Of a stretch of DNA of 8,183 nucleotides, positions 1 to 8,183 are shown piece by piece. The position numbers and the translations under genes were made by a program. The notes under the pieces were generated by a model. That model saw nothing but the letters and a program-made list of their open reading frames with translations. It made no database searches and had not been told where the DNA came from. The stretch's first letter is position 1. Each line of letters opens with the position of its first letter. The stretch comes from a virus (taxonomy: Duplodnaviria; Heunggongvirae; Uroviricota; Caudoviricetes): the IMG/VR virus record IMGVR_UViG_2778261512_000016; one strand, 5' to 3'.

Positions 1-431
1 CCATGGAGACGACATTCGTGCTGGATGCACTGGAGCAGGCGTTATGGGCCCGTCGACCGTCCGGCACGGTCCATCACAGTGATAAAGGTTCTCAGTATGT
101 ATCGCTGGCCTACACACAGCGGCTTAAGGAAGCCGGATTACTGGCATCAACAGGAAGTACAGGCGACTCGTATGACAACGCGATGGCGGAGAGCATCAAT
201 GGTCTTTACAAAGCGGAGGTAATACACCGTAAGAGCTGGAAAAACCGTGCAGAAGTGGAACTGGCCACACTCACGTGGGTGGACTGGTATAACAATCGAC
301 GATTGCTGGAAAGGCTGGGCCATACTCCTCCGGCAGAAGCAGAAAAAGCTTATTATGCTTCCATCGGAAACGATGATCTGGCAGCCTGAGTTCACAGATA
401 AAACACTCTCCAGGAAACCCGGGGCGGTTCA
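1..431 (+). mobile_element. 3' portion of an IS629-type (IS3 family) insertion sequence; the element continues beyond the left window edge and its terminal inverted repeat ends at 431
   Basis: Transposase OrfB C-terminus in frame at 3..389. The minus strand at 409..431 reads TGAACCGCCCCGGGTTTCCTGGAGAG, matching my recollection of the IS629/IS1203 terminal inverted repeat. Not database-verified. Confidence 0.75.
3..389 (+). CDS. IS3-family (IS629-like) transposase OrfB, C-terminal fragment (5' end lies outside the window)
   Basis: The translation carries the C-terminal part of a DDE integrase-core domain (HHSDKGSQYVS ... DSYDNAMAESINGLYKAEVIHRKSW ... TWVDWYNNRRLLERLGHTPPAEAE), the pattern of IS3-family OrfB. 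The ORF is open from the window edge and stops with TGA at 387..389. Confidence 0.9.
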   Translation: METTFVLDALEQALWARRPSGTVHHSDKGSQYVSLAYTQRLKEAGLLASTGSTGDSYDNAMAESINGLYKAEVIHRKSWKNRAEVELATLTWVDWYNNRRLLERLGHTPPAEAEKAYYASIGNDDLAA

Positions 432-556
432 CCACTCTTCCTTTGTTTAGATTGTAAACATTTAATACGGCAGTGACTGACAATAGCACCATTCTCAACG
501 CGCACAGTATAGAGGCCATCTTCAGTAAAAATTTCACGTAATTCTTCGATTTTCAT
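432..556 (-). pseudogene. 5' fragment of a small ORF interrupted by the IS629-type insertion (41 native codons, then read-through into the IS end to a stop at 392)
   Basis: Minus-strand ATG at 556 preceded by GGAAGGA 8 nt upstream; the translation MKIEELREIFTEDGLYTVRVENGAIVSHCRIKCLQSKQRKS then continues into the IS terminal repeat. A sigma70-like promoter lies upstream on the minus strand (-35 TTGAAG at 663..668, 18-bp spacer, -10 TAGAAT at 639..644). Identity of the original gene is unknown. Confidence 0.35.
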
Positions 557-680
557 CAACAGAATCCTTCCAGATAAATAGCACTCCCCTGTTCGGGGTC
601 CATCCCTCTTATCCCTGCGCGCTACTTAAGTATTTTTGATTCTATTCCGGCACCGCCCAGAACTTCAAACGCGTTGAAAA

Positions 681-708
681 TAAAAACAAAAACCCGCCGA
701 AGCGGGTT
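681..708 (-). terminator. Rho-independent terminator at the 3' end of the hok mRNA
   Basis: Minus strand reads AACCCGC-TTCG-GCGGGTT followed by TTTGTTTTTATTTT: a GC-rich 7-bp stem with a tetraloop and a U-run, about 70 nt downstream of the hok stop. Confidence 0.6.
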
Positions 709-776
709 AAATGCGGGTGCGTTGAGAATGCCTGACACATCAGAGGTGGCGAGGGATTTCTCCCCCGCCGGGTCTC

Positions 777-932
777 TTACTCCTCAGATTCGTAAGCTGT
801 GAAGACAGCGACCTCCGTCTGGCCGGTTCGGATTCGTACCTCGCAGAGGTCTTTCCTCGTTACCAGTGCCGTCACTATGACGGTTAAACAGATGACGATC
901 AGGGCGATTAACATCGCCTTTTGCTGCTTCAT
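777..932 (-). CDS. hokD: Hok/Gef-family small membrane toxin (type I toxin), 51 aa, closest from memory to HokD/RelF
   Basis: Translation MKQQKAMLIALIVICLTVIVTALVTRKDLCEVRIRTGQTEVAVFTAYESEE has the Hok hallmark (single TM helix, then RKxLCE ... EVAAF/VF ... YE). GGAG lies 9 nt upstream of the ATG at 932. The product is internal to the 70-aa ORF listed at 777..989. Confidence 0.85.
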   Translation of the reverse strand: MKQQKAMLIALIVICLTVIVTALVTRKDLCEVRIRTGQTEVAVFTAYESEE

Positions 933-989
933 AGCCTGCTTCTCCTTGCCTTTCGGCACGTAAGAGGCTAACCTACGTGTGTAGAGCAT
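777..989 (-). CDS. mok: mok-like reading frame (in-frame upstream extension of hok, as in mokC/hokC)
   Basis: ATG at 989 opens a 70-aa frame whose first 19 aa (MLYTRRLASYVPKGKEKQA) precede the hok Met. This resembles the in-frame mokC extension of hokC as I recall it. The function is regulatory coupling, not a distinct protein. Confidence 0.5.
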   Translation of the reverse strand: MLYTRRLASYVPKGKEKQAMKQQKAMLIALIVICLTVIVTALVTRKDLCEVRIRTGQTEVAVFTAYESEE

Positions 990-1045
990 AGATATGGCCT
1001 CAGATTAATGTTAAGCGTCTTGCCGGACGCGTAATGTTAACTGGG
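981..1045 (+). ncRNA. sok: Candidate Sok-type antisense RNA covering the mok start and SD region (boundaries approximate)
   Basis: Plus-strand promoter-like elements inside mok: -35 TTGCCT (946..951), 17-bp spacer, -10 TAACCT (969..974). The predicted start near 981 is antisense to the mok initiation region. A small hairpin GCGTC-ttgccg-GACGC lies at 1014..1029, flanked by TAATGTTAA direct repeats, and is followed by a U-rich stretch. Placement is by analogy to sokC/mokC geometry; the 3' end is uncertain. Confidence 0.35.
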
Positions 1046-1107
1046 GCTTTTCTCTATCTGCCTTTGGTGTTGATGCCCGAGGCAGATAGCCTCAAGCACC
1101 CGCAGCA

Positions 1108-1136
1108 ATTCTACTTAACTACCGTTACCTCGCCAA
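1108..1136 (-). promoter_or_regulatory. hok/mok mRNA promoter (sigma70 type)
   Basis: Minus strand: -35 TTGGCG (plus coords 1131..1136), 17-bp spacer, -10 TAGAAT (1108..1113), predicted start about 1100. The leader that follows (GGGTGCTTGAGGCTATCTGCCTC ...) resembles the plasmid R1 hok mRNA 5' end as I recall it. Confidence 0.5.
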
Positions 1137-1611
1137 TATGAAATCAATCAGAAAGGTGATCCATAAGAACAACAGCAAGACAATAAATTGCCATTACAGC
1201 AGCAATAGCCAGCGCACATTTGAGAACCAGCACCACAACCTCCTGTATTGGACGTACACCAGTCCTGATAAATATGAGGCTGTCTCGTCAGTGATTCAAT
1301 ACAACTACTGGGTATAGTTTCTATGATTTTGTTCTGTGGAAATGGAAAACAGCAACCAGTCACCACCAGCACTTCTTTAAACATGCCAAGTCACACGCAA
1401 GCCAACATTATAGTTCCCTTTGAGCGAGCAGATGAAGCTAGCAAAAATATTGATCACTTAGGATGCATTACTAACGTTGCTATGTGTTAACGAACAGGGA
1501 GTGGGTCATCAGCATAAATATTTATGCAGTAGGTTTCTTTTAGGACTAGATTAATCAAAAACATTTAGATAAAATTATAAAATCAAGAAATTGGTGGCAA
1601 TTAATCTTTAA

Positions 1612-1640
1612 TTGTGCCAGCTGAATTTCGTTATTATAGA
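1612..1640 (+). promoter_or_regulatory. Candidate promoter for the two-gene cargo operon
   Basis: -35 TTGTGC (1612..1617), 17-bp spacer, -10 TATAGA (1635..1640), followed by a T8 tract (1649..1656) and the RBS GGAGAG (1665..1670). The match is weak, and promoter-like hexamers occur readily by chance in AT-rich DNA. Confidence 0.25.
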
Positions 1641-1674
1641 AGATTAGCTTTTTTTTGAGTGTTTGGAGAGTAAA

Positions 1675-2370
1675 ATGTTAGAACCACCAAAGAGTTATAA
1701 TGAAATGTTGCCTATGCTCCATAAGGCGACTTTTATTACTACATTTATATTTTACCTATCATTAGTCATTTATGGCTACATGCCATTGGTTGGCATTAAT
1801 GCCAAGTATATCCCCCCCGTTAAAGACTACGAGGAATTTATTAAATGGATATTAACCTTTGGCATATTACCAATTGCATCTTCAGTTTTTTGGTCAGTAA
1901 TTAGTGGAGCTTTAGATCTACATAATAATGTAGCAAAAATTATTGGAATAAGGAAGATGTGGGATAGTCATTTAATTATTAAACCATTAGCAAAAATTGC
2001 AGGCGTTACGAGAAAATTAACTACTGATGAATCTCACAAGGTAATGAGTAAACTGTATTACCCAGAAGTTAAAGAGTTAAAAGACAAACATTACGTTGAA
2101 CTTTTCTGGAACAAAGTTTATTACTTTTGGGTTTTCTTTGAACATACAGTAATCGCATTTGTTACTATTTTAATAATAAGTATCGCCAAATTAACAAATA
2201 TATTCTCTGTTACTGGCTCTTTAATTAATCTTTGGTTGTGGATTATTTCTCTTGTCGCATTTGACTTCCTTATTTTCATAGCATCAGTTAAACCAAGAAC
2301 AGAAAGCCAAGTAAGACAAATACCTGATAGCAAAATAAAAGAATTCTTTAACAATAACAATATTTTTTAA
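1675..2370 (+). CDS. Hypothetical integral membrane protein, 231 aa, four predicted TM helices (two N-terminal, two C-terminal, separated by a charged soluble region of about 65 aa)
   Basis: ATG at 1675 with GGAG at 1665..1668 (the listed ORF starts at an upstream TTG at 1663). Hydrophobic segments: ATFITTFIFYLSLVIYGYMPLVGI, FIKWILTFGILPIASSVFWSVISGAL, FWVFFEHTVIAFVTILIISIAKL, VTGSLINLWLWIISLVAFDFLIFIASV. Low-GC codon usage. No family recognised by eye. Confidence 0.65.
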   Translation: MLEPPKSYNEMLPMLHKATFITTFIFYLSLVIYGYMPLVGINAKYIPPVKDYEEFIKWILTFGILPIASSVFWSVISGALDLHNNVAKIIGIRKMWDSHLIIKPLAKIAGVTRKLTTDESHKVMSKLYYPEVKELKDKHYVELFWNKVYYFWVFFEHTVIAFVTILIISIAKLTNIFSVTGSLINLWLWIISLVAFDFLIFIASVKPRTESQVRQIPDSKIKEFFNNNNIF

Positions 2371-2382
2371 ACGAGGTTGATT

Positions 2383-3036
2383 TTGAATTACAAAATAAAT
2401 GGAATAAACATACGTTCAGAAAATGCAGCGAAACCGCACACTATGCCATCTAACTATCTCTGTAAACAGATTGAAAGCACTAATAAAAATGGCAATGCCC
2501 TTGATTTTGGATGTGGAAAACTTAGATATTCAGAACAATTAGTAAATAAATTTGAAACTGTGACATTTTTAGATTCCAGAAGACAACTAGAAAGAGTGCA
2601 AATTATCAGAGGTGTACAAACCACGATTCCAGATTACGTGATAAATAACTATAAGAATGCTAATATTGTTTCTTATGAAAATATAGATAAAATAACAAAT
2701 CATTATGATTTCATACTTTGCGCAAACGTGCTTTCCGCAATTCCATGTGAATCCACAATTCACAAAGTCCTCAGTGCGATTAGAGAATTATTAAAGAGTG
2801 ATGGTGAAGCACTGATTGTCAATCAATACAAAAGTTCTTATTTCAAGAGGTACGAGAGCGGTATTAAACATTTGCATGGGTATATATACCAAAACTCTCG
2901 CAATGCTTTCTACTATGGTTTATTAGATGTGGATACTGTAAGTAAAATATGCTCAGATAATAATTTAGAAATAATAAAATCATGGAGCAAAGCAGGTAGT
3001 TCATATGTGGTTGTTGGTAAACATATACATATTTAG
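2383..3036 (+). CDS. Class I (Rossmann-fold) SAM-dependent methyltransferase-like protein, about 217 aa; not a DNA methyltransferase by motif content
   Basis: Motif I LDFGCGKL, acidic post-I residue in TVTFLD, motif II HYDFILCANVLSAIP, motif III LLKSDGEALIV. No DPPY/NPPY-type catalytic motif or target-recognition domain. Start is uncertain: TTG at 2383 sits 6 nt after GAGG (2373..2376); alternatives are TTG 2377 and ATG 2443. It begins 13 nt after the upstream stop, so it is probably co-transcribed or translationally coupled. Confidence 0.65.
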   Translation: MNYKINGINIRSENAAKPHTMPSNYLCKQIESTNKNGNALDFGCGKLRYSEQLVNKFETVTFLDSRRQLERVQIIRGVQTTIPDYVINNYKNANIVSYENIDKITNHYDFILCANVLSAIPCESTIHKVLSAIRELLKSDGEALIVNQYKSSYFKRYESGIKHLHGYIYQNSRNAFYYGLLDVDTVSKICSDNNLEIIKSWSKAGSSYVVVGKHIHI

Positions 3037-3350
3037 TTTATTTCAACAAATTATTAGAAAGAGTGATTTGCTTGTTAATTATTAGCTCGGCAGTGCCGGA
3101 TCAACATGACCCTGCCACTTAGGCCATTGCCGGTTTACCTACTTTTGTAAGGTTCAGCATGAAGTTTTTATATACTCTTCCTAATATCAATAGTGATGCT
3201 CGCTTATGTTAGCTGCTTCTTGTACATAGTAGCCTTCTCCGACAGTACTGCAATGAGCGGAGAGTAAAAGTCGATAAACAATAAGGAGGTTCACAATAAA
3301 TATTTCTCGGTGAAACTTTCAAAGCATTCTCTGTTTTGCTAAATCGACAA

Positions 3351-4250
3351 TTATAAATCAACAACATTTAGTGTTATATCAATATTATTTAGCCTTGCAA
3401 TCTCTGATGAATCACTTGCTATTTTAGCTTTTAATTTATCAATATTAATCATATCTTCATGGCTTATATAAACCATATCACCTTGGTTAACTTTAGATTT
3501 GTTCACTATGGCTTGAATAACAGACAAATCATCCATTACACCTCTCATAAATTTCACCATGCTTTGATCTTTGAAGTCAGATATCGATTTTGAACGTTGC
3601 TTACGTTGAATTGTTCCTTTTGTAATTACTTCATTAATTTCTTTTAAACCAGTGAGCATATCAGACAGACTGCCTTCGCAACTCATCCGATGTTTTATTG
3701 CATTGCGATTAATAATATTGAGTATAATTTCGAGTGAATCTTTATCACTCCATGGATGTAATGATGTATAATCATGATGGCGTCGAATGGCGTCAATCAT
3801 ATCCTGGACCATATCTTCATCTGCTTTATCGCAAAGTTCATTCACGAAATAGCTGGGGTCGATTATTTTACAATAACTTGGAGTTAGGTATCTTGAGGCT
3901 TTACAAAAACCAAAAATATATAAAGTAGAGTATTTATCTTTCAGACTCTCTCCTATTTCATTTATTTTCTCAAAAGATTCGATAGTTTTTTTAATTTTTG
4001 CTGGACTTGCATTCGTAGTAACTTGAACTGCTATCATGTTTTTATTATCAGCTAAATCAATGGCGGGAAAATTAACTTTAATCTGATTCATGTTTACCAG
4101 TTCACTCATTTTCAGCGCGCGAAACATAAAGATGGTCAATGACTCAATTATTCTTTCCATGTCATGAAAGCCTGCCTGTTTGCGTTGCGCGATATAAAGC
4201 TGGAGTAGTGCAATATCACTCTGTAAGTTTCTAATAAGTGGATCAATCAT
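3351..4250 (-). CDS. Hypothetical 299-aa protein; the N-terminal region resembles what I recall as the SMEK-type domain (NFPAIDLADNKNMIAVQVTT ... KIKKTIESF) and the C-terminal alpha-helical region contains an R-x4-H motif (RNAIKH) compatible with a HEPN-like RNase
   Basis: Long minus-strand ORF with ATG at 4250 and AAGGA 9 nt upstream; AT-rich codon usage matching the neighbouring cargo genes. Domain assignments are from memory and motif inspection only. Confidence 0.6.
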   Translation of the reverse strand: MIDPLIRNLQSDIALLQLYIAQRKQAGFHDMERIIESLTIFMFRALKMSELVNMNQIKVNFPAIDLADNKNMIAVQVTTNASPAKIKKTIESFEKINEIGESLKDKYSTLYIFGFCKASRYLTPSYCKIIDPSYFVNELCDKADEDMVQDMIDAIRRHHDYTSLHPWSDKDSLEIILNIINRNAIKHRMSCEGSLSDMLTGLKEINEVITKGTIQRKQRSKSISDFKDQSMVKFMRGVMDDLSVIQAIVNKSKVNQGDMVYISHEDMINIDKLKAKIASDSSEIARLNNIDITLNVVDL

Positions 4251-4286
4251 AGCTAATAATCCTTTTCAATGAAGCTGGAGGTGTGT

Positions 4287-4303
4287 TTAACTATTAGTTA
4301 AAT
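4287..4303. promoter_or_regulatory. Perfect 8+1+8 palindrome TTTAACTATTAGTTAAA in the 5' leader/promoter region of the 299-aa gene; candidate operator
   Basis: Read directly from the sequence, 37 to 53 bp upstream of the start codon at 4250. AT-rich context raises the chance-palindrome rate. Confidence 0.25.
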
Positions 4304-4502
4304 TTCTATTTTTATAGAAACAAGCTTTACAACTTCATCAAAGTTTCTCAAATCCTAATCCACTTTGCAAATCCACTAACCATGCTGAATGCTTTCTGTT
4401 GTTAAACATATCCGCTGCTGGCACCAAGCAGACAAACACACTAACTCTACCCTACTCCACAAAAGAGCCAATCAATATCTGAACTAATAAACTTTAATCT
4501 CA

Positions 4503-4925
4503 TCACTTCAATAAATATCGAGCATTTCCCTGATAGAATGCTAGTATGCGCTGCATAACTTCACTCTTCCGGCACTCGCGACAGATTATGTTCTGACGCC
4601 TGTCGTAGCGACGTATTTCTCCGTCAGGTAATGACCAGATAAGGTCCGGATCAACCGCAGATGGTTCCTTCAGCTTTGCCCTTGAGAGCTTTTTACGGGC
4701 ATTTTGCCAGTCCTTACGCGCCTGTTCAGACGGGAATAACCCGTAACCAGAGTTGTATACATCGCCGCTGGCAACCAGCTCTCTTGCGAGAACGCTCATC
4801 AGATATCTTGTCGCACCTGTCTTGACTTCCAGTTGCCGTAACGTCTCACGCCCACTCCGGCGTACGAGTTCAACAACCTGCCCTTTAATTTTTTCCCGCT
4901 CTTCTTGTGTAAAAACTTTTGCCAC
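4503..4925 (-). CDS. Hypothetical prophage protein, 140 aa, basic; function unknown
   Basis: GTG start at 4925 with AGGAGG 4 nt upstream; host-like GC content; it follows the replication initiator gene on the same strand. No family recognised. Confidence 0.55.
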   Translation of the reverse strand: MAKVFTQEEREKIKGQVVELVRRSGRETLRQLEVKTGATRYLMSVLARELVASGDVYNSGYGLFPSEQARKDWQNARKKLSRAKLKEPSAVDPDLIWSLPDGEIRRYDRRQNIICRECRKSEVMQRILAFYQGNARYLLK

Positions 4926-4965
4926 AAGCCCTCCTGAAAATTACCTCATGACCAGAAATTAACAC

Positions 4966-5931
4966 TTACCCCCTGAAGCCCGGCGGAATTTCGGTATCCG
5001 GCTCAGAAATATGATTCACACAACGCTGTACAGACGAACGCCCCAGGCGGATAACCAGTTCATCCCATTTTTCGCGAAGCTTTGACGGACTCATGATATT
5101 TTTTACCCAGAATGGATCCCGCTGCACCCGACCAAACATTTCACAAATTTGTCTGTGAGTTCTGCCATCCAGCATCCGCATTGTGCGCACGTCGTTGGCC
5201 CATGCGGTCCAGTTGGGTTCTTTCGGTCGCGAAATCTCGCCATCATCGCTGGCGGCCTGCTCGTAAAGACTCACGATTCGCCCCCAGATCCACTGCGCAC
5301 ACGCCAAATCTTCCTGGCTGCCCCACTGGCGTTTTTTCGCACTGAACACAACCGCGTCAGGGTGTCGGGTTAAAAAATCCTGTTCAACCGTCTGCGGGTC
5401 CGGTTGCGAAGCTTCCGGACGAGAAGTCTTTTTATTCTCTGTAGTAATCTCTGTTGTATTCTCTGTAAGATCATCAGGCCATTTTGACCCGATGACATTG
5501 AGTCGTTTTGAACCAATGGAGCGTTTCATTTTGACCTCTTCCATCGTGTCATTTTGACCTGATGGAGCGGCGCATTTTAAACCGATGGATTCGCTCAATT
5601 TGCCACCATCTAAAAGCTCGCTCCCGTAGTTGATCGTGTAGAAATTGGTCATATCGCGCTTTGATTTATTGAGCTTTTCACAACGCAAAAGCCCCAGCGT
5701 TTTCAGACTTGCAAACGCGCGCTTTAACGTTGACTCTGACCAGAATGGGAACTGTTCCAGCCATTGTTCCGTTGTGTTATAAATCCAGCGAACACCATCA
5801 CATTCCATGCCGGAGTTGGTATCTCTCAACCAGTAGTGCAGTTGTTGCAAAACAATGGCTTCGTTTAAGCCAATTTTCATTGCCAGCTGCGTGTTTATAA
5901 CCAGTGGGCGTTCAGCAAAAAGAAGACTCAT
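4966..5931 (-). CDS. Lambdoid replication initiation protein (lambda O-like / replisome organiser) with the origin embedded in its coding sequence
   Basis: N-terminal winged-helix-like region (WIYNTTEQWLEQFPFWSESTLKRAFASLKTLGLL); the central region is encoded by the iterons (repeated SIG.K peptides); C-terminal domain ends ... SKLREKWDELVIRL. Preferred start is ATG at 5931 (GGATGG upstream); the listed ORF extends to a TTG at 5985. It overlaps the upstream gene by 20 nt. Confidence 0.7.
   Translation of the reverse strand: MSLLFAERPLVINTQLAMKIGLNEAIVLQQLHYWLRDTNSGMECDGVRWIYNTTEQWLEQFPFWSESTLKRAFASLKTLGLLRCEKLNKSKRDMTNFYTINYGSELLDGGKLSESIGLKCAAPSGQNDTMEEVKMKRSIGSKRLNVIGSKWPDDLTENTTEITTENKKTSRPEASQPDPQTVEQDFLTRHPDAVVFSAKKRQWGSQEDLACAQWIWGRIVSLYEQAASDDGEISRPKEPNWTAWANDVRTMRMLDGRTHRQICEMFGRVQRDPFWVKNIMSPSKLREKWDELVIRLGRSSVQRCVNHISEPDTEIPPGFRG
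5425..5592. repeat. Putative phage origin of replication: five direct iterons of about 18 bp at roughly 23-bp spacing (5480..5590) followed, in the gene sense, by an AT-rich tract (5425..5478)
   Basis: Plus-strand units CATTTTGACCCGATGACA, TCGTTTTGAACCAATGGA, CATTTTGACCTCTTCCAT, CATTTTGACCTGATGGAG, CATTTTAAACCGATGGAT starting at 5480, 5503, 5527, 5550, 5573. The layout mirrors lambda ori inside gene O. Confidence 0.6.
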
Positions 5932-6433
5932 AATTCCATCCAGCTTTTTGTTGGTATTGCTGTCGATACGCAAGCTTGAAAGCAATTGCTTTTTCTATAA
6001 GTTCGTCAGTTTCACGATCTACAACGGCAGGATCTGCAAAAAGCAGTCCGGATTCCACCACATCGCCATATTCTTTATTTAACCCGGCGATCATGTACGT
6101 AATACTTTTTCCATCACTGATCTCACGATACAACCTGAAATCACTAATCCGGATAGCCTCCATAATCGCAGGCACTAGCGCCGTGAACTTTTCACGCTTA
6201 TCCCTGGTGTCGATAGCCTTCCAGCGTTCGAATATCTTCACTCGATTAACGCCAAGCGCTCGCTGATCAACCGCGCCACCTTCATCTGTGACACGCTGAA
6301 CATCGATGTTCGGGCGCTCTTTCAAAGCCCAGAATGCTTCAGTGATTAATATCGTCGCCTGCTCCTGTGTCATTCCTGGTCGACATATCCAGGCATCCAG
6401 AGCCTCACGAGCCTGTTCAGGAGTGATTTTCAT
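5912..6433 (-). CDS. Prophage protein, 173 aa, in the position of the CII/YdaT-type gene downstream of cro; possibly YdaT-family
   Basis: ATG at 6433, overlapping the dicC stop by 17 nt (translational coupling). Synteny cI-like / cro-like / this gene / replication initiator matches Rac-type racR-ydaS-ydaT-ydaU. Family assignment is by position, not by a recognised motif. Confidence 0.6.
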   Translation of the reverse strand: MKITPEQAREALDAWICRPGMTQEQATILITEAFWALKERPNIDVQRVTDEGGAVDQRALGVNRVKIFERWKAIDTRDKREKFTALVPAIMEAIRISDFRLYREISDGKSITYMIAGLNKEYGDVVESGLLFADPAVVDRETDELIEKAIAFKLAYRQQYQQKAGWNYESSFC

Positions 6434-6647
6434 TGTTCAACCGCCCCGCCCGCTTCGTCTTACGATATTCATCATAAACTTTGGGATCATACTGAAGCTC
6501 CCCGCCAGATGCCTCCTGTAGACGCATCGCGCGACCTTCGGGAACTAAATCCCCTTTCCAGCTATAAAGCGAAGCCAAACGAATACCTGCTGCTTGTGCA
6601 AGTTTTGTTTTTGAACCGAAATACAAAAGAGCGTCAGTTTTAAGCAT
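6417..6647 (-). CDS. dicC: Cro-like HTH regulator DicC (76 aa)
   Basis: Translation MLKTDALLYFGSKTKLAQAAGIRLASLYSWKG ... matches my memory of DicC/YdaS-type Cro-like proteins. AAGGTG lies 6 nt upstream of the ATG at 6647. Divergent from dicA. Confidence 0.85.
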   Translation of the reverse strand: MLKTDALLYFGSKTKLAQAAGIRLASLYSWKGDLVPEGRAMRLQEASGGELQYDPKVYDEYRKTKRAGRLNNENHS

Positions 6648-6661
6648 TTAAAACACCTTTA

Positions 6662-6709
6662 TTGTTAGTCATGACTAACAAAATAGATGTTAACAAAAAC
6701 ATAGTCAAT
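6662..6709 (-). promoter_or_regulatory. dicC promoter with overlapping operator: perfect 20-bp palindrome TTGTTAGTCATGACTAACAA (6662..6681)
   Basis: Minus strand: -35 TTGACT (plus coords 6704..6709), 17-bp spacer, -10 TATTTT (6681..6686). The palindrome lies immediately downstream, over the predicted start. The dicA promoter in the same intergenic region could not be placed confidently. Confidence 0.55.
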
Positions 6710-6730
6710 ACGATTTAGCATTAGCTAACT

Positions 6731-7138
6731 ATGGAAACAAAAAATTTAACTATCGGCGAACGCATTAGGTATCGTCGGAAAAACCTCAAACACACCCAAA
6801 GGTCTCTTGCTAAAGCCCTGAAAATCTCCCATGTGTCTGTATCACAATGGGAACGGGATGATAGTGAACCTACAGGGAAGAACCTTTTTGCCCTCAGCAA
6901 AGTATTGCAATGCTCACCAACATGGATTCTATTTGGCGATGAAGACAAGCAACCAACACCACCTGTTGAGAAGCCAGTTGCCTTATCCCCCAAAGAACTA
7001 GAGCTCCTTGAGCTGTTTAATGCACTGCCAGAATCAGAACAGGATACCCAGCTCGCCGAAATGCGAGCTCGAGTAAAAAACTTCAATAAACTCTTTGAAG
7101 AATTACTAAAAGCCCGTCAGCGGACAAATAAAAGATAA
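6731..7138 (+). CDS. dicA: CI-like HTH (XRE-family) repressor DicA, 135 aa
   Basis: Translation METKNLTIGERIRYRRKNLKHTQRSLAKALKISHVSVSQWER ... matches my recollection of E. coli DicA (135 aa). HTH in the N-terminus; divergent from the cro-like gene. Confidence 0.9.
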   Translation: METKNLTIGERIRYRRKNLKHTQRSLAKALKISHVSVSQWERDDSEPTGKNLFALSKVLQCSPTWILFGDEDKQPTPPVEKPVALSPKELELLELFNALPESEQDTQLAEMRARVKNFNKLFEELLKARQRTNKR

Positions 7139-7160
7139 CATCATCAATGAGTTATCTTTT
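7133..7160 (+). terminator. Weak hairpin overlapping the dicA stop (AGATAAC - 11 nt loop - GTTATCT, then TTT); possible attenuating terminator
   Basis: 7-bp AT-rich stem with a short U-run; weak. K-12 dicA is thought to read through into the ydfABC-dicB operon, so this may be only a partial terminator or nothing. Confidence 0.2.
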
Positions 7161-7171
7161 ACCACATCAAT

Positions 7172-7227
7172 CATGTTAGCCATAACATACAAAATTACTT
7201 GACCTATATGTTAGCCATGGCTAATCT
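7172..7227 (+). promoter_or_regulatory. Promoter of the ydfA-ydfB-ydfC operon with DicA-operator-like sites
   Basis: -35 TTGACC (7199..7204), 17-bp spacer, -10 TAATCT (7222..7227). The spacer contains the perfect 14-bp palindrome TTAGCCATGGCTAA (7211..7224), and a further copy of ATGTTAGCCAT lies at 7172..7183. The half-site TGTTAG(C/T)CA matches the dicA/dicC operator palindrome. Confidence 0.45.
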
Positions 7228-7304
7228 TATTTGCATCAACACACCGCACGGTGTTCTCAGCAAACAGTTCCGCTACCCCGGCGTTAAGGGGAAATGAGGT
7301 CAAC

Positions 7305-7460
7305 ATGGATACTATCGATCTTGGCAACAGCGAATCTCTGGTATGTGGCGTGTTCCCCAACCAGGACGGTACGTTCACCGCGATGACGTATACCAAAAGC
7401 AAAACGTTTAAAACCGAATCTGGAGCGCGTCGCTGGCTGGAAAGAAATTCAGGTGGGTGA
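7305..7460 (+). CDS. ydfA: Small prophage protein, 51 aa, YdfA-like
   Basis: ATG at 7305 with GAGG 5 nt upstream (MDTIDLGNSESLVCGVFPNQDGTFTAMTYTKSKTFKTESGARRWLERNSGG). Length and position after dicA match K-12 ydfA as I recall it. The listed ORF starts further upstream at 7251. Confidence 0.7.
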   Translation: MDTIDLGNSESLVCGVFPNQDGTFTAMTYTKSKTFKTESGARRWLERNSGG

Positions 7461-7461
7461 T

Positions 7462-7590
7462 ATGGATTTCGACACAATCATGGAAAAGGCTTACGAAGAA
7501 TACTTCGAAGGTCTTGCCGAAGGCGAAGAAGCTCTCAGCTTCAGCGAATTTAAACAGGCACTTTCCAGTTCGGCAAAATCTAACGGCTGA
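7462..7590 (+). CDS. ydfB: Small acidic prophage protein, 42 aa, YdfB-like
   Basis: ATG at 7462, 1 nt after the ydfA stop, with AGGTGGG upstream (MDFDTIMEKAYEEYFEGLAEGEEALSFSEFKQALSSSAKSNG). Below the ORF-track size cut-off; found by reading the sequence. Confidence 0.6.
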   Translation: MDFDTIMEKAYEEYFEGLAEGEEALSFSEFKQALSSSAKSNG

Positions 7591-7619
7591 TAAGCGAAAC
7601 AGCACCGCGAGGAATCAGT

Positions 7620-7838
7620 ATGCAGAAACGAGAACCCGTCATCATCGCGCCAGACTATACCGATGATGAACTTTATGAGTGGATGCGCCAGAAAATTAAT
7701 GCAGCGCAGGATCTGAAATGGGCCAATGAAGCCAGGGCTAAGCAGGCTGAAAATCTGTCCGCTCTGGAGCAGGATATCACTAATCTGGAAAAAGCAGCGA
7801 CATTAAGCATTGCCAGAATGATTACATACCCGCGTTAA
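7620..7838 (+). CDS. ydfC: Small prophage protein, 72 aa, YdfC-like
   Basis: ATG at 7620 with GAGG 7 nt upstream (MQKREPVIIAPDYTDDELYEWMRQKINAAQDLKWANEARAKQAENLSALEQDITNLEKAATLSIARMITYPR). Third gene of the dicA-downstream operon. Confidence 0.75.
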   Translation: MQKREPVIIAPDYTDDELYEWMRQKINAAQDLKWANEARAKQAENLSALEQDITNLEKAATLSIARMITYPR

Positions 7839-8183
7839 TAGCTAACCAACGAAGCTAAGGTTGGTAATTAAGGAGTTCTCCACGGATGAGGTGGAGTGCG
7901 TGCGCCGGACACGGGTGAGCATCCGGCACTGACAGTTTACTGAAAGGATATTTCCCTGAAAAGTCAGACCATAACGCGAAAGCGCACGGCGAGGTAGCTG
8001 GTTCATAGATAGCCTGTCGTTAAATTTTCGTCGACCGTGCGCTTCCGGTTGTGGCAATCCGCGAAATGGCGCGGCGGTAAGTATGGCGGGGTTATTCCTT
8101 CCCCCGTTGAGGACACCGGGTTGTCAGGTTGACCATACGCTTAAGTGACAACCCCGCTGCAACGCCCTCTGTTATCAATTTTC

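Follow-up and report, generated by a model that had tools for sequence, protein, structure and literature searches.

The stretch of DNA analysed here, referred to below as the window, comprises 8183 bp and corresponds to the entire draft contig NLQJ01000080.1 (GCA_002231255.1) in reverse complement, its left end lying inside a copy of the insertion sequence IS629. From this end, the window carries the right-hand 431 bp of the element (1..431, plus strand), the retained 5' part of a rem-family gene for a predicted DicA antirepressor (432..559, minus strand), an intact hokD/sok locus, a set of cargo genes and, further to the right, the regulatory genes dicC and dicA with ydfA/B/C-like genes beside them. 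The gene for the Cro-like regulator DicC (6417..6647, minus strand; Pfam P22_Cro) is identical to the annotated dicC of E. coli C7 and heads a leftward early operon running towards hokD and rem. The gene dicA (6731..7138, plus strand), which encodes a CI-like repressor and the presumed target of Rem, is likewise identical to its annotated C7 counterpart, and its product agrees with K-12 DicA in 134 of 135 residues. In C7, the prophage goes on into dicB, an exonuclease gene and an integrase gene adjoining tRNA-Ser; the right contig end lies 345 bp past ydfC and short of the dicB of this syntenic prophage. The E. coli prophage that carries this rem gene, just downstream of hokD, is Qin-like and lambdoid, with DicA and DicC as its immunity regulators.

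The hokD gene (777..932, minus strand) codes for 51 amino acids, matches Pfam HOK_GEF (2.9e-23) and is annotated as hokD at the matching C7 position; its frame extends in-frame upstream to an ATG at 989 (777-989, minus strand). The hok/sok regulatory region (927..1101, minus strand) was recovered by Rfam RF01794 (sok) with 114 bits against a gathering score of 59, the match lying on the same strand as hokD; the gene here thus has a full upstream regulatory region, unlike the hokD of K-12, which is fused to relBE. The hokD/sok locus as a whole is intact and lies 345 bp from the IS, next to the truncated reading frame, as previously described. An intrinsic-terminator-like hairpin with a T-run (681..708, minus strand; hairpin 708-691) would end the hokD transcript and separates hokD from rem. 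Between hokD and the replication genes, positions 1663-4250 form a variable cargo slot, in which both the window and C7 carry genes for a membrane protein of 235 aa, a SAM-dependent methyltransferase of class I and a SMEK-domain protein. The last of these matches the PADLOC model Aga_REase-PNTD1-PNTD2 at its N-terminus (8.6e-21). Elsewhere the slot is occupied by RloB and an AAA ATPase (L004), HNH and an AAA ATPase (L017), the paa adhesin (O157, L006) or relBE (K-12). In these prophages it thus resembles a hot spot for defence genes or morons.

Pairwise alignment of the window with the uninterrupted prophage of E. coli C7 (L003) revealed identity from position 432 exactly (CCACTCTTCC...), with 7751 of 7752 positions of window 432-8183 identical and a single mismatch. 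Just left of position 432, the window reads ...CCCGGGGCGGTTCA, whereas C7 continues into the remainder of rem. Because identity to this empty site starts at 432, the IS terminus at 431 is base-exact; together with a 431/431 match to a curated IS629 element, this confirms the position that the preliminary description had assigned to the end of the terminal repeat. Among the matches listed, window 432-640 is present at 100% identity and free of any IS in at least 20 complete E. coli genomes, C7 included. The description had also noted that just one IS end is in view, and no second IS terminus was found across the whole 8183-bp window, since short-read assembly broke within the repeated element and the contig starts inside it. 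In this respect the contig illustrates how draft contigs come to end within IS629. Its first base corresponds to IS629 position 880 and not to the IS boundary, which suggests that the strain has other IS629-family copies sharing the first ~880 bp and differing in the last third, i.e. mixed isoforms.

Exact-match scans for the 33-bp IS/rem junction retrieved it neither from species-representative genomes nor from JGI metagenomes, and the 54-aa chimeric product read across it (P0065) is recorded from contig NLQJ01000080.1 only. Such a singleton, coming from a short-read draft contig and seen in no other genome or metagenome searched, could in principle be an assembly chimera without a biological counterpart. 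We nevertheless consider this extremely improbable: the break falls exactly at the terminal base of the IS, as in real insertions, and independent insertions of the same element were found 3-70 bp from the site in a curated phage record as well as in complete genomes built from long reads, while a unique flank running into a repeat is how an assembler normally renders a real insertion.

The visible part of the element codes for the C-terminal 128 codons of the DDE transposase OrfB (3..389, plus strand; stop at 387-389; Pfam rve, rve_3 and rve_2). On the NCBIfam profile for IS3 transposases (transpos_IS3), this fragment covers positions 255-369 of 369, i.e. the last 115, with 133.7 bits, a score under the whole-protein cut-off because the contig end cuts the protein. 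The OrfB stop is followed by 42 bp up to the IS end, which closes with ...CCCGGGGCGGTTCA at 431 and contains the right terminal inverted repeat (IRR; 407..431, plus strand; end ...GGTTCA-3'), matching the left end of full copies at 23 of 25 positions. These full copies carry 25-bp imperfect terminal repeats (23/25), start at the left with TGAACCGCCCCGGG... and have the form 5'-TG...CA-3'. Copies that are 99.8-100% identical over the visible part have a length of 1310 bp, and their annotation includes a programmed frameshift; in IS629, a programmed -1 frameshift joins orfA to orfB, upstream of the part in view. The window's share corresponds to positions 880-1310 of the element. Over all 431 positions the window is identical to the element in LC567828.1, which its depositors describe as 'insertion sequence: IS3 family IS629' with the target site duplication TAA. 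With the rve domains, the IS3 transposase profile and the 25-bp inverted repeat, this match bears out the earlier assignment of the element to the IS629 type.

Comparison of window 1-431 with other copies revealed a 100% match to 'IS3 family transposase' copies in O26, O103, O145, O104:H4 and other E. coli, and 99.8% identity to Shigella dysenteriae and S. flexneri plasmid copies, to the 1310-bp copies in loci L001 and L002 and to the L005 copy that borders rem. Identity to the O157:H7 copy, which PGAP assigns to the 'IS1203 family', reached only 95.1%. Rump et al. distinguished three IS629 sub-types that are 4-5% apart: IS1203-like, predominant in O157, Shigella-like and O26-like (PMC3271280). 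By sequence identity, the window copy is the isoform of O26/O103/O145/O104 strains and Shigella, not the IS1203-type predominant in O157. As the last third of the element (431 of 1310 bp) is all that is in view, as 'IS629' has been published as three sub-types differing by 4-5% (PMC3271280), and as the full-length copies compared here differ from one another by 1.6-4%, the element could instead be another member of the IS629/IS1203/IS3411 cluster, an isoform or a mosaic rather than IS629 proper. We regard this as very unlikely given the 431/431 agreement with an element named IS629 by its depositors, the PGAP name 'IS3-like element IS629 family transposase' given to the N-terminal part of the 99.8%-identical L005 copy, and the fact that Shigella plasmid copies lie at 99.8% and the IS1203-type copy at 95.1%.

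The preliminary description had further taken IS629 as a hint at an O157 or Shigella background. This hint is weak: IS629-family sequence matches occur in 4146 of 5426 complete E. coli genomes, and identity to the O157 copy is only 95.1%; IS629-family DNA is also found on Escherichia, Shigella, Salmonella and Klebsiella plasmids. Because of its presence in 4146/5426 complete E. coli genomes, the element says little on the host beyond 'Escherichia or Shigella', and the view of IS629 as a marker of O157 or Shigella needs correcting.

On the minus strand, a reading frame starts with an ATG at 556 and runs into the IS, as previously described; it occupies 392-556 and encodes 54 amino acids, or 55 (392-559) when started from the TTG at 559, which corresponds to the RefSeq start of the intact homologue. 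A protein look-up for the 55-aa TTG-start product found no record. From the ATG, the native part spans 125 nt (432-556), i.e. 41 codons and 2 nt, in line with the roughly 41 native codons counted earlier; codon 42 stays glycine (GGA to GGT), its third base being the first base of the IS. The frame continues with 12 IS-encoded codons (EPPRVSWRVFYL) from the terminal repeat and stops at 394-392. The resulting chimeric 54-codon ORF thus combines 42 Rem residues with an IS-derived tail, and with 42 of 86 residues kept it is not a full-length Rem frame.

Intact homologues exist, as the description of the ORF as truncated demanded: P0002 (86 aa) and WP_000975572.1 (87 aa) are 100% identical over the retained part and annotated as 'hypothetical protein', and among the matches listed the retained rem part is 100% identical to the intact gene in C7 and at least 19 further complete genomes. 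The suggestion that the ORF is the gene downstream of hokD in the Qin prophage of K-12 also held, as that gene is rem, to which the intact allele shows 74% protein identity, and the order hokD-rem-DUF968 is that of Qin. The full order around the intact gene reads hokD, rem, a small hypothetical gene, DUF968, rusA and Q. Rem was not assigned to a family by local scans with Pfam-A and NCBIfam, but was by a precomputed index and by PHROGs: precomputed Pfam assignments place the 54-aa product and all 73 homologues, all from Escherichia or Shigella, in PF27490 (Rem), and phrog_340 matches the fragment at 8.5e-08 and the intact form at 2.9e-20. The rem-family gene is also present in sequenced phages, mEp460_ev081 among them, and in PPompW prophage records and Stx2a-converting phage records including them. 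A further Rem homologue, P0064 from a 533-bp ENA contig, ends in ...AALIDVYKRQVHSYPC, of which DVYKRQ can be read as the translated Nextera adapter AGATGTGTATAAGAGACAG; this tail would be adapter read-through in the assembly and not biology.

Upstream of the start codon, a Shine-Dalgarno motif AAGGA (565..569, minus strand) was read directly and is kept in all aligned rem loci. A sigma-70-like promoter candidate, TTGAAG-18-TAGAAT (639..668, minus strand), came out of a consensus scan and follows immediately on the terminator-like hairpin at 708-691. Of the good ribosome binding site and promoter credited to the ORF beforehand, the former is therefore clearly present (AAGGA, 569-565), while the latter stands as a consensus match of 9/12. 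Searching window 432-800, the region upstream of rem, for a LexA-box-like CTG-N10-CAG motif gave no hit. Control of rem by the SOS response, as for the antirepressors of the Gifsy phages, was considered as well and is unsupported because no such site lies upstream of the gene.

The function of Rem has been studied in K-12 by Ragunathan et al. (J Bacteriol 2023), who came upon the protein in iterated searches with the Gifsy-1 and Fels-1 antirepressors as starting points and showed it to act as an antirepressor of DicA (PMC10448788). DicA belongs to the short CI-like repressors that have no RecA cleavage site, and ectopic rem raised dicBp-lacZ expression 165-fold and caused filamentation that needed Qin and DicB or DicF (PMC10448788). 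Deletion of rem left spontaneous, urea-induced and heat-induced derepression unchanged, and the natural inducing signal of rem was unknown as of that study (PMC10448788).

Taken together, the preferred account, which we consider highly probable, is that a copy of IS629 interrupts codon 42/43 of the 86/87-codon rem gene of a Qin-like prophage and thereby creates a likely null allele of the antirepressor. IS629 would have inserted by copy-out/paste-in transposition, with CCA as the predicted target duplication; its right inverted repeat abuts the 5' part of rem, and its transposase gene is opposite in direction to rem. The reading frame left by the insertion encodes 42 Rem residues and 12 IS-encoded residues, the C-terminal 44-45 residues of Rem being lost. 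An alignment of 23 Rem sequences has 32 invariant columns, of which, by our count from the column list, 16 come after residue 42, and the invariant residues removed by the truncation (residues 43-86) include D55, G56, F57, R60, the E63-L68 run and L71-E73. An AlphaFold2 model of the intact 86-aa protein is of low confidence (pLDDT 64, pTM 0.47) and mostly beta; the segment that is lost contains strands 4-6 and the single helix of this model. As half of the invariant columns and these modelled elements are missing, rem::IS629 is most likely a null allele. A Foldseek search with the low-confidence Rem model against the PDB and BFVD returned nothing at E < 0.01 and consequently no structural lead on the mechanism of Rem.

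As Rem is an experimentally supported antirepressor of DicA, the insertion has a concrete predicted consequence. Since repression by DicA is lifted by Rem in K-12, and since the window's DicA shares 99% identity with that of K-12, the loss of rem likely removes the antirepressor route to DicA-controlled promoters, with dicBp, which drives DicF and DicB, among them; the lytic switch of the prophage is probably affected as a further DicA-controlled target. This prediction is made by analogy, antirepressor activity being known for the K-12 allele by overexpression, to which the allele here would be 74% identical in its intact form.

Beyond rem itself, the IS separates the early operon headed by dicC from the DUF968-rusA-Q genes, and its transposase gene runs antisense to this operon. 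Given this position, the 1.3-kb insert may be polar on the downstream DUF968-rusA-Q genes, including Q. A weak terminator-like hairpin with a T-run (410..422, minus strand), matching the consensus and reading in the direction of rem, lies within the IRR; this hairpin (422-410) could add to polarity on the downstream genes and is the sole hint of polarity in the sequence. A scan of positions 380-1250 for a plus-strand promoter reading outward from the IS into the flank was negative.

Elements of the IS3 family transpose by a copy-out/paste-in route through a circular intermediate and usually generate target duplications of 3-4 bp. Sister insertions carry such duplications of 3 bp, namely CAA (L001), GCC (L002), ATC (L006), TTA (L016), ATG (L017) and TAA (LC567828.1), with L016 (TTA), L017 (ATG) and the curated LC567828.1 (TAA) as examples of simple IS629 insertions inside rem itself. 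By extension from these cases, the CCA at 432..434 is the predicted copy of the 3-bp target-site duplication, and for a simple insertion the other junction was modelled as ...AAATTAACGCAGCTCCA, which represents distal rem with CCA repeated, joined to the IS629 left end TGAACCGCCCCGGGAATCC.... For IS629, target duplications of 3-4 bp have been reported, and 62% of its copies were located in prophages (PMC3271280).

With the contig starting inside the IS, the other junction and the distal half of rem lie outside of it, so that the junction could alternatively be the scar of an IS-mediated rearrangement, such as an adjacent deletion, recombination of two IS629 copies or a nested IS. Related loci provide precedents: in L014, what lies beyond the IS629 left end is not the remainder of rem but a different sequence with another IS3-family transposase gene, L005 contains a second IS629-type copy without a matching 3-bp duplication, and a group II intron splits the IS629 copy next to rem/hokD in both L005 and L008. 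In the latter two loci (L005 1-2889, E. coli S1-CAM-02-A; L008 1-2889, C325), the intron, encoding an ltrA reverse transcriptase/maturase, lies in the IS629 transposase gene. Were a rearrangement the true origin, the strain would have lost the distal rem half, and perhaps Q and the lysis region, or would carry them at another place. However, among the full-length copies examined near hokD/rem, simple insertions with 3-bp duplications are commoner (L001, L002, L006, L016, L017, L018), and the flank is otherwise 99.99% identical to the intact prophage, which suggests a recent, clean event. We therefore judge a rearrangement to be rather unlikely and retain a simple insertion as the preferred reading.

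Inspection of related loci revealed eight independent IS629-family junctions in rem-family genes (L016/L018, the window, L011, L014, L001, L005, L017 and L008), spread over 82 bp (C7 3990-4072 in a gene extending over 3865-4128) in a search that favoured the 5' half of the gene. They involve differing alleles, isoforms and orientations, and the junctions in the window, L011 and L014 lie within 3 bp of one another in different alleles. In addition, rem of Shigella flexneri CP026768.1 (L019 2501-2926) is cut by IS1 after ...QSQQR, a few codons from the IS629 site of the window, and the tail of the resulting chimeric ORF (P0066) overlaps the DDE_Tnp_IS1 gene. A strict orientation bias of IS629 at rem was also considered and ruled out, as the IS joined to hokD has the orientation of the window in 23 genomes and the opposite one in 10, and both orientations occur inside rem.

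Repeated hits of this kind could reflect a regional target preference or selection for disarming an antirepressor that is toxic through DicB and DicF; selection would imply that DicA-type prophages become locked in the repressed state. An excess over chance is not claimed here, because the search favoured the 5' half and IS629 prefers prophages anyway, and that IS elements inactivate rem recurrently, and not just by random hits, appears doubtful to us. If it were upheld statistically, the repeated hits in rem would tell of selection on prophage antirepressors, the window adding one more data point. The IS-excision enhancer (IEE) promotes precise excision of IS629, and in IEE-carrying strains a lock of this type might be reversible.

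Like Rem, the Salmonella proteins GfoA (Gifsy) and FsoA (Fels) are encoded by prophages, are small and act by inactivating short repressors of the CI-like kind that lack a RecA cleavage site. Their relationship to Rem is distant, with 33% identity via an intermediate (PMC10448788), and the rem gene here differs in having no LexA-box-like site upstream. Much closer is rem of the K-12 Qin prophage (b1561; PMC10448788), which, as in the window, lies directly downstream of hokD and upstream of ydfU and a Q-like gene, in a prophage whose DicA/DicC/ydfABC module is nearly identical to that of the window (DicA 134/135). In contrast to the allele studied here, the K-12 gene is intact and codes for 83 aa, which are 74% identical to the window's intact form with a 4-residue gap; moreover, hokD of K-12 is fused to the relBE operon, whereas hokD of the window is free-standing with a sok region and has other cargo upstream.

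Prophages of O157:H7 and O55:H7 (L006) share with the window a 1310-bp IS629-family element in the same orientation and neighbourhood, there flanked by the 3-bp duplication ATC. They differ in that the insertion is intergenic, between hokD and the rem-like gene (at about window 602), which leaves rem intact, and in that the isoform is of the IS1203-type, with 95.1% identity over the visible part and 97.3% in the full-length comparison. The nearest counterparts are Enterobacteria phage PPompW_EH2201 (LC567828.1) and E. coli UTME-3 (L016), in which rem is, as in the window, 'interrupted by IS629' in a hokD-rem-DUF968 context, by an element identical over the visible 431 bp and 1310 bp long with a 3-bp target duplication. 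In these two, the insertion is situated 11 bp further into rem (C7 coordinate 3990 compared to 4001 for the window) and in the opposite orientation, the rem allele shows ~89% protein identity, and both halves of the gene are visible. An IS629 in rem is therefore already annotated publicly (LC567828.1), and nothing is new about the element, the gene family, the mechanism or the type of event. The insertion described here marks a single step, specific to this strain, by which a Qin-like prophage decays or is domesticated, and is of limited importance.
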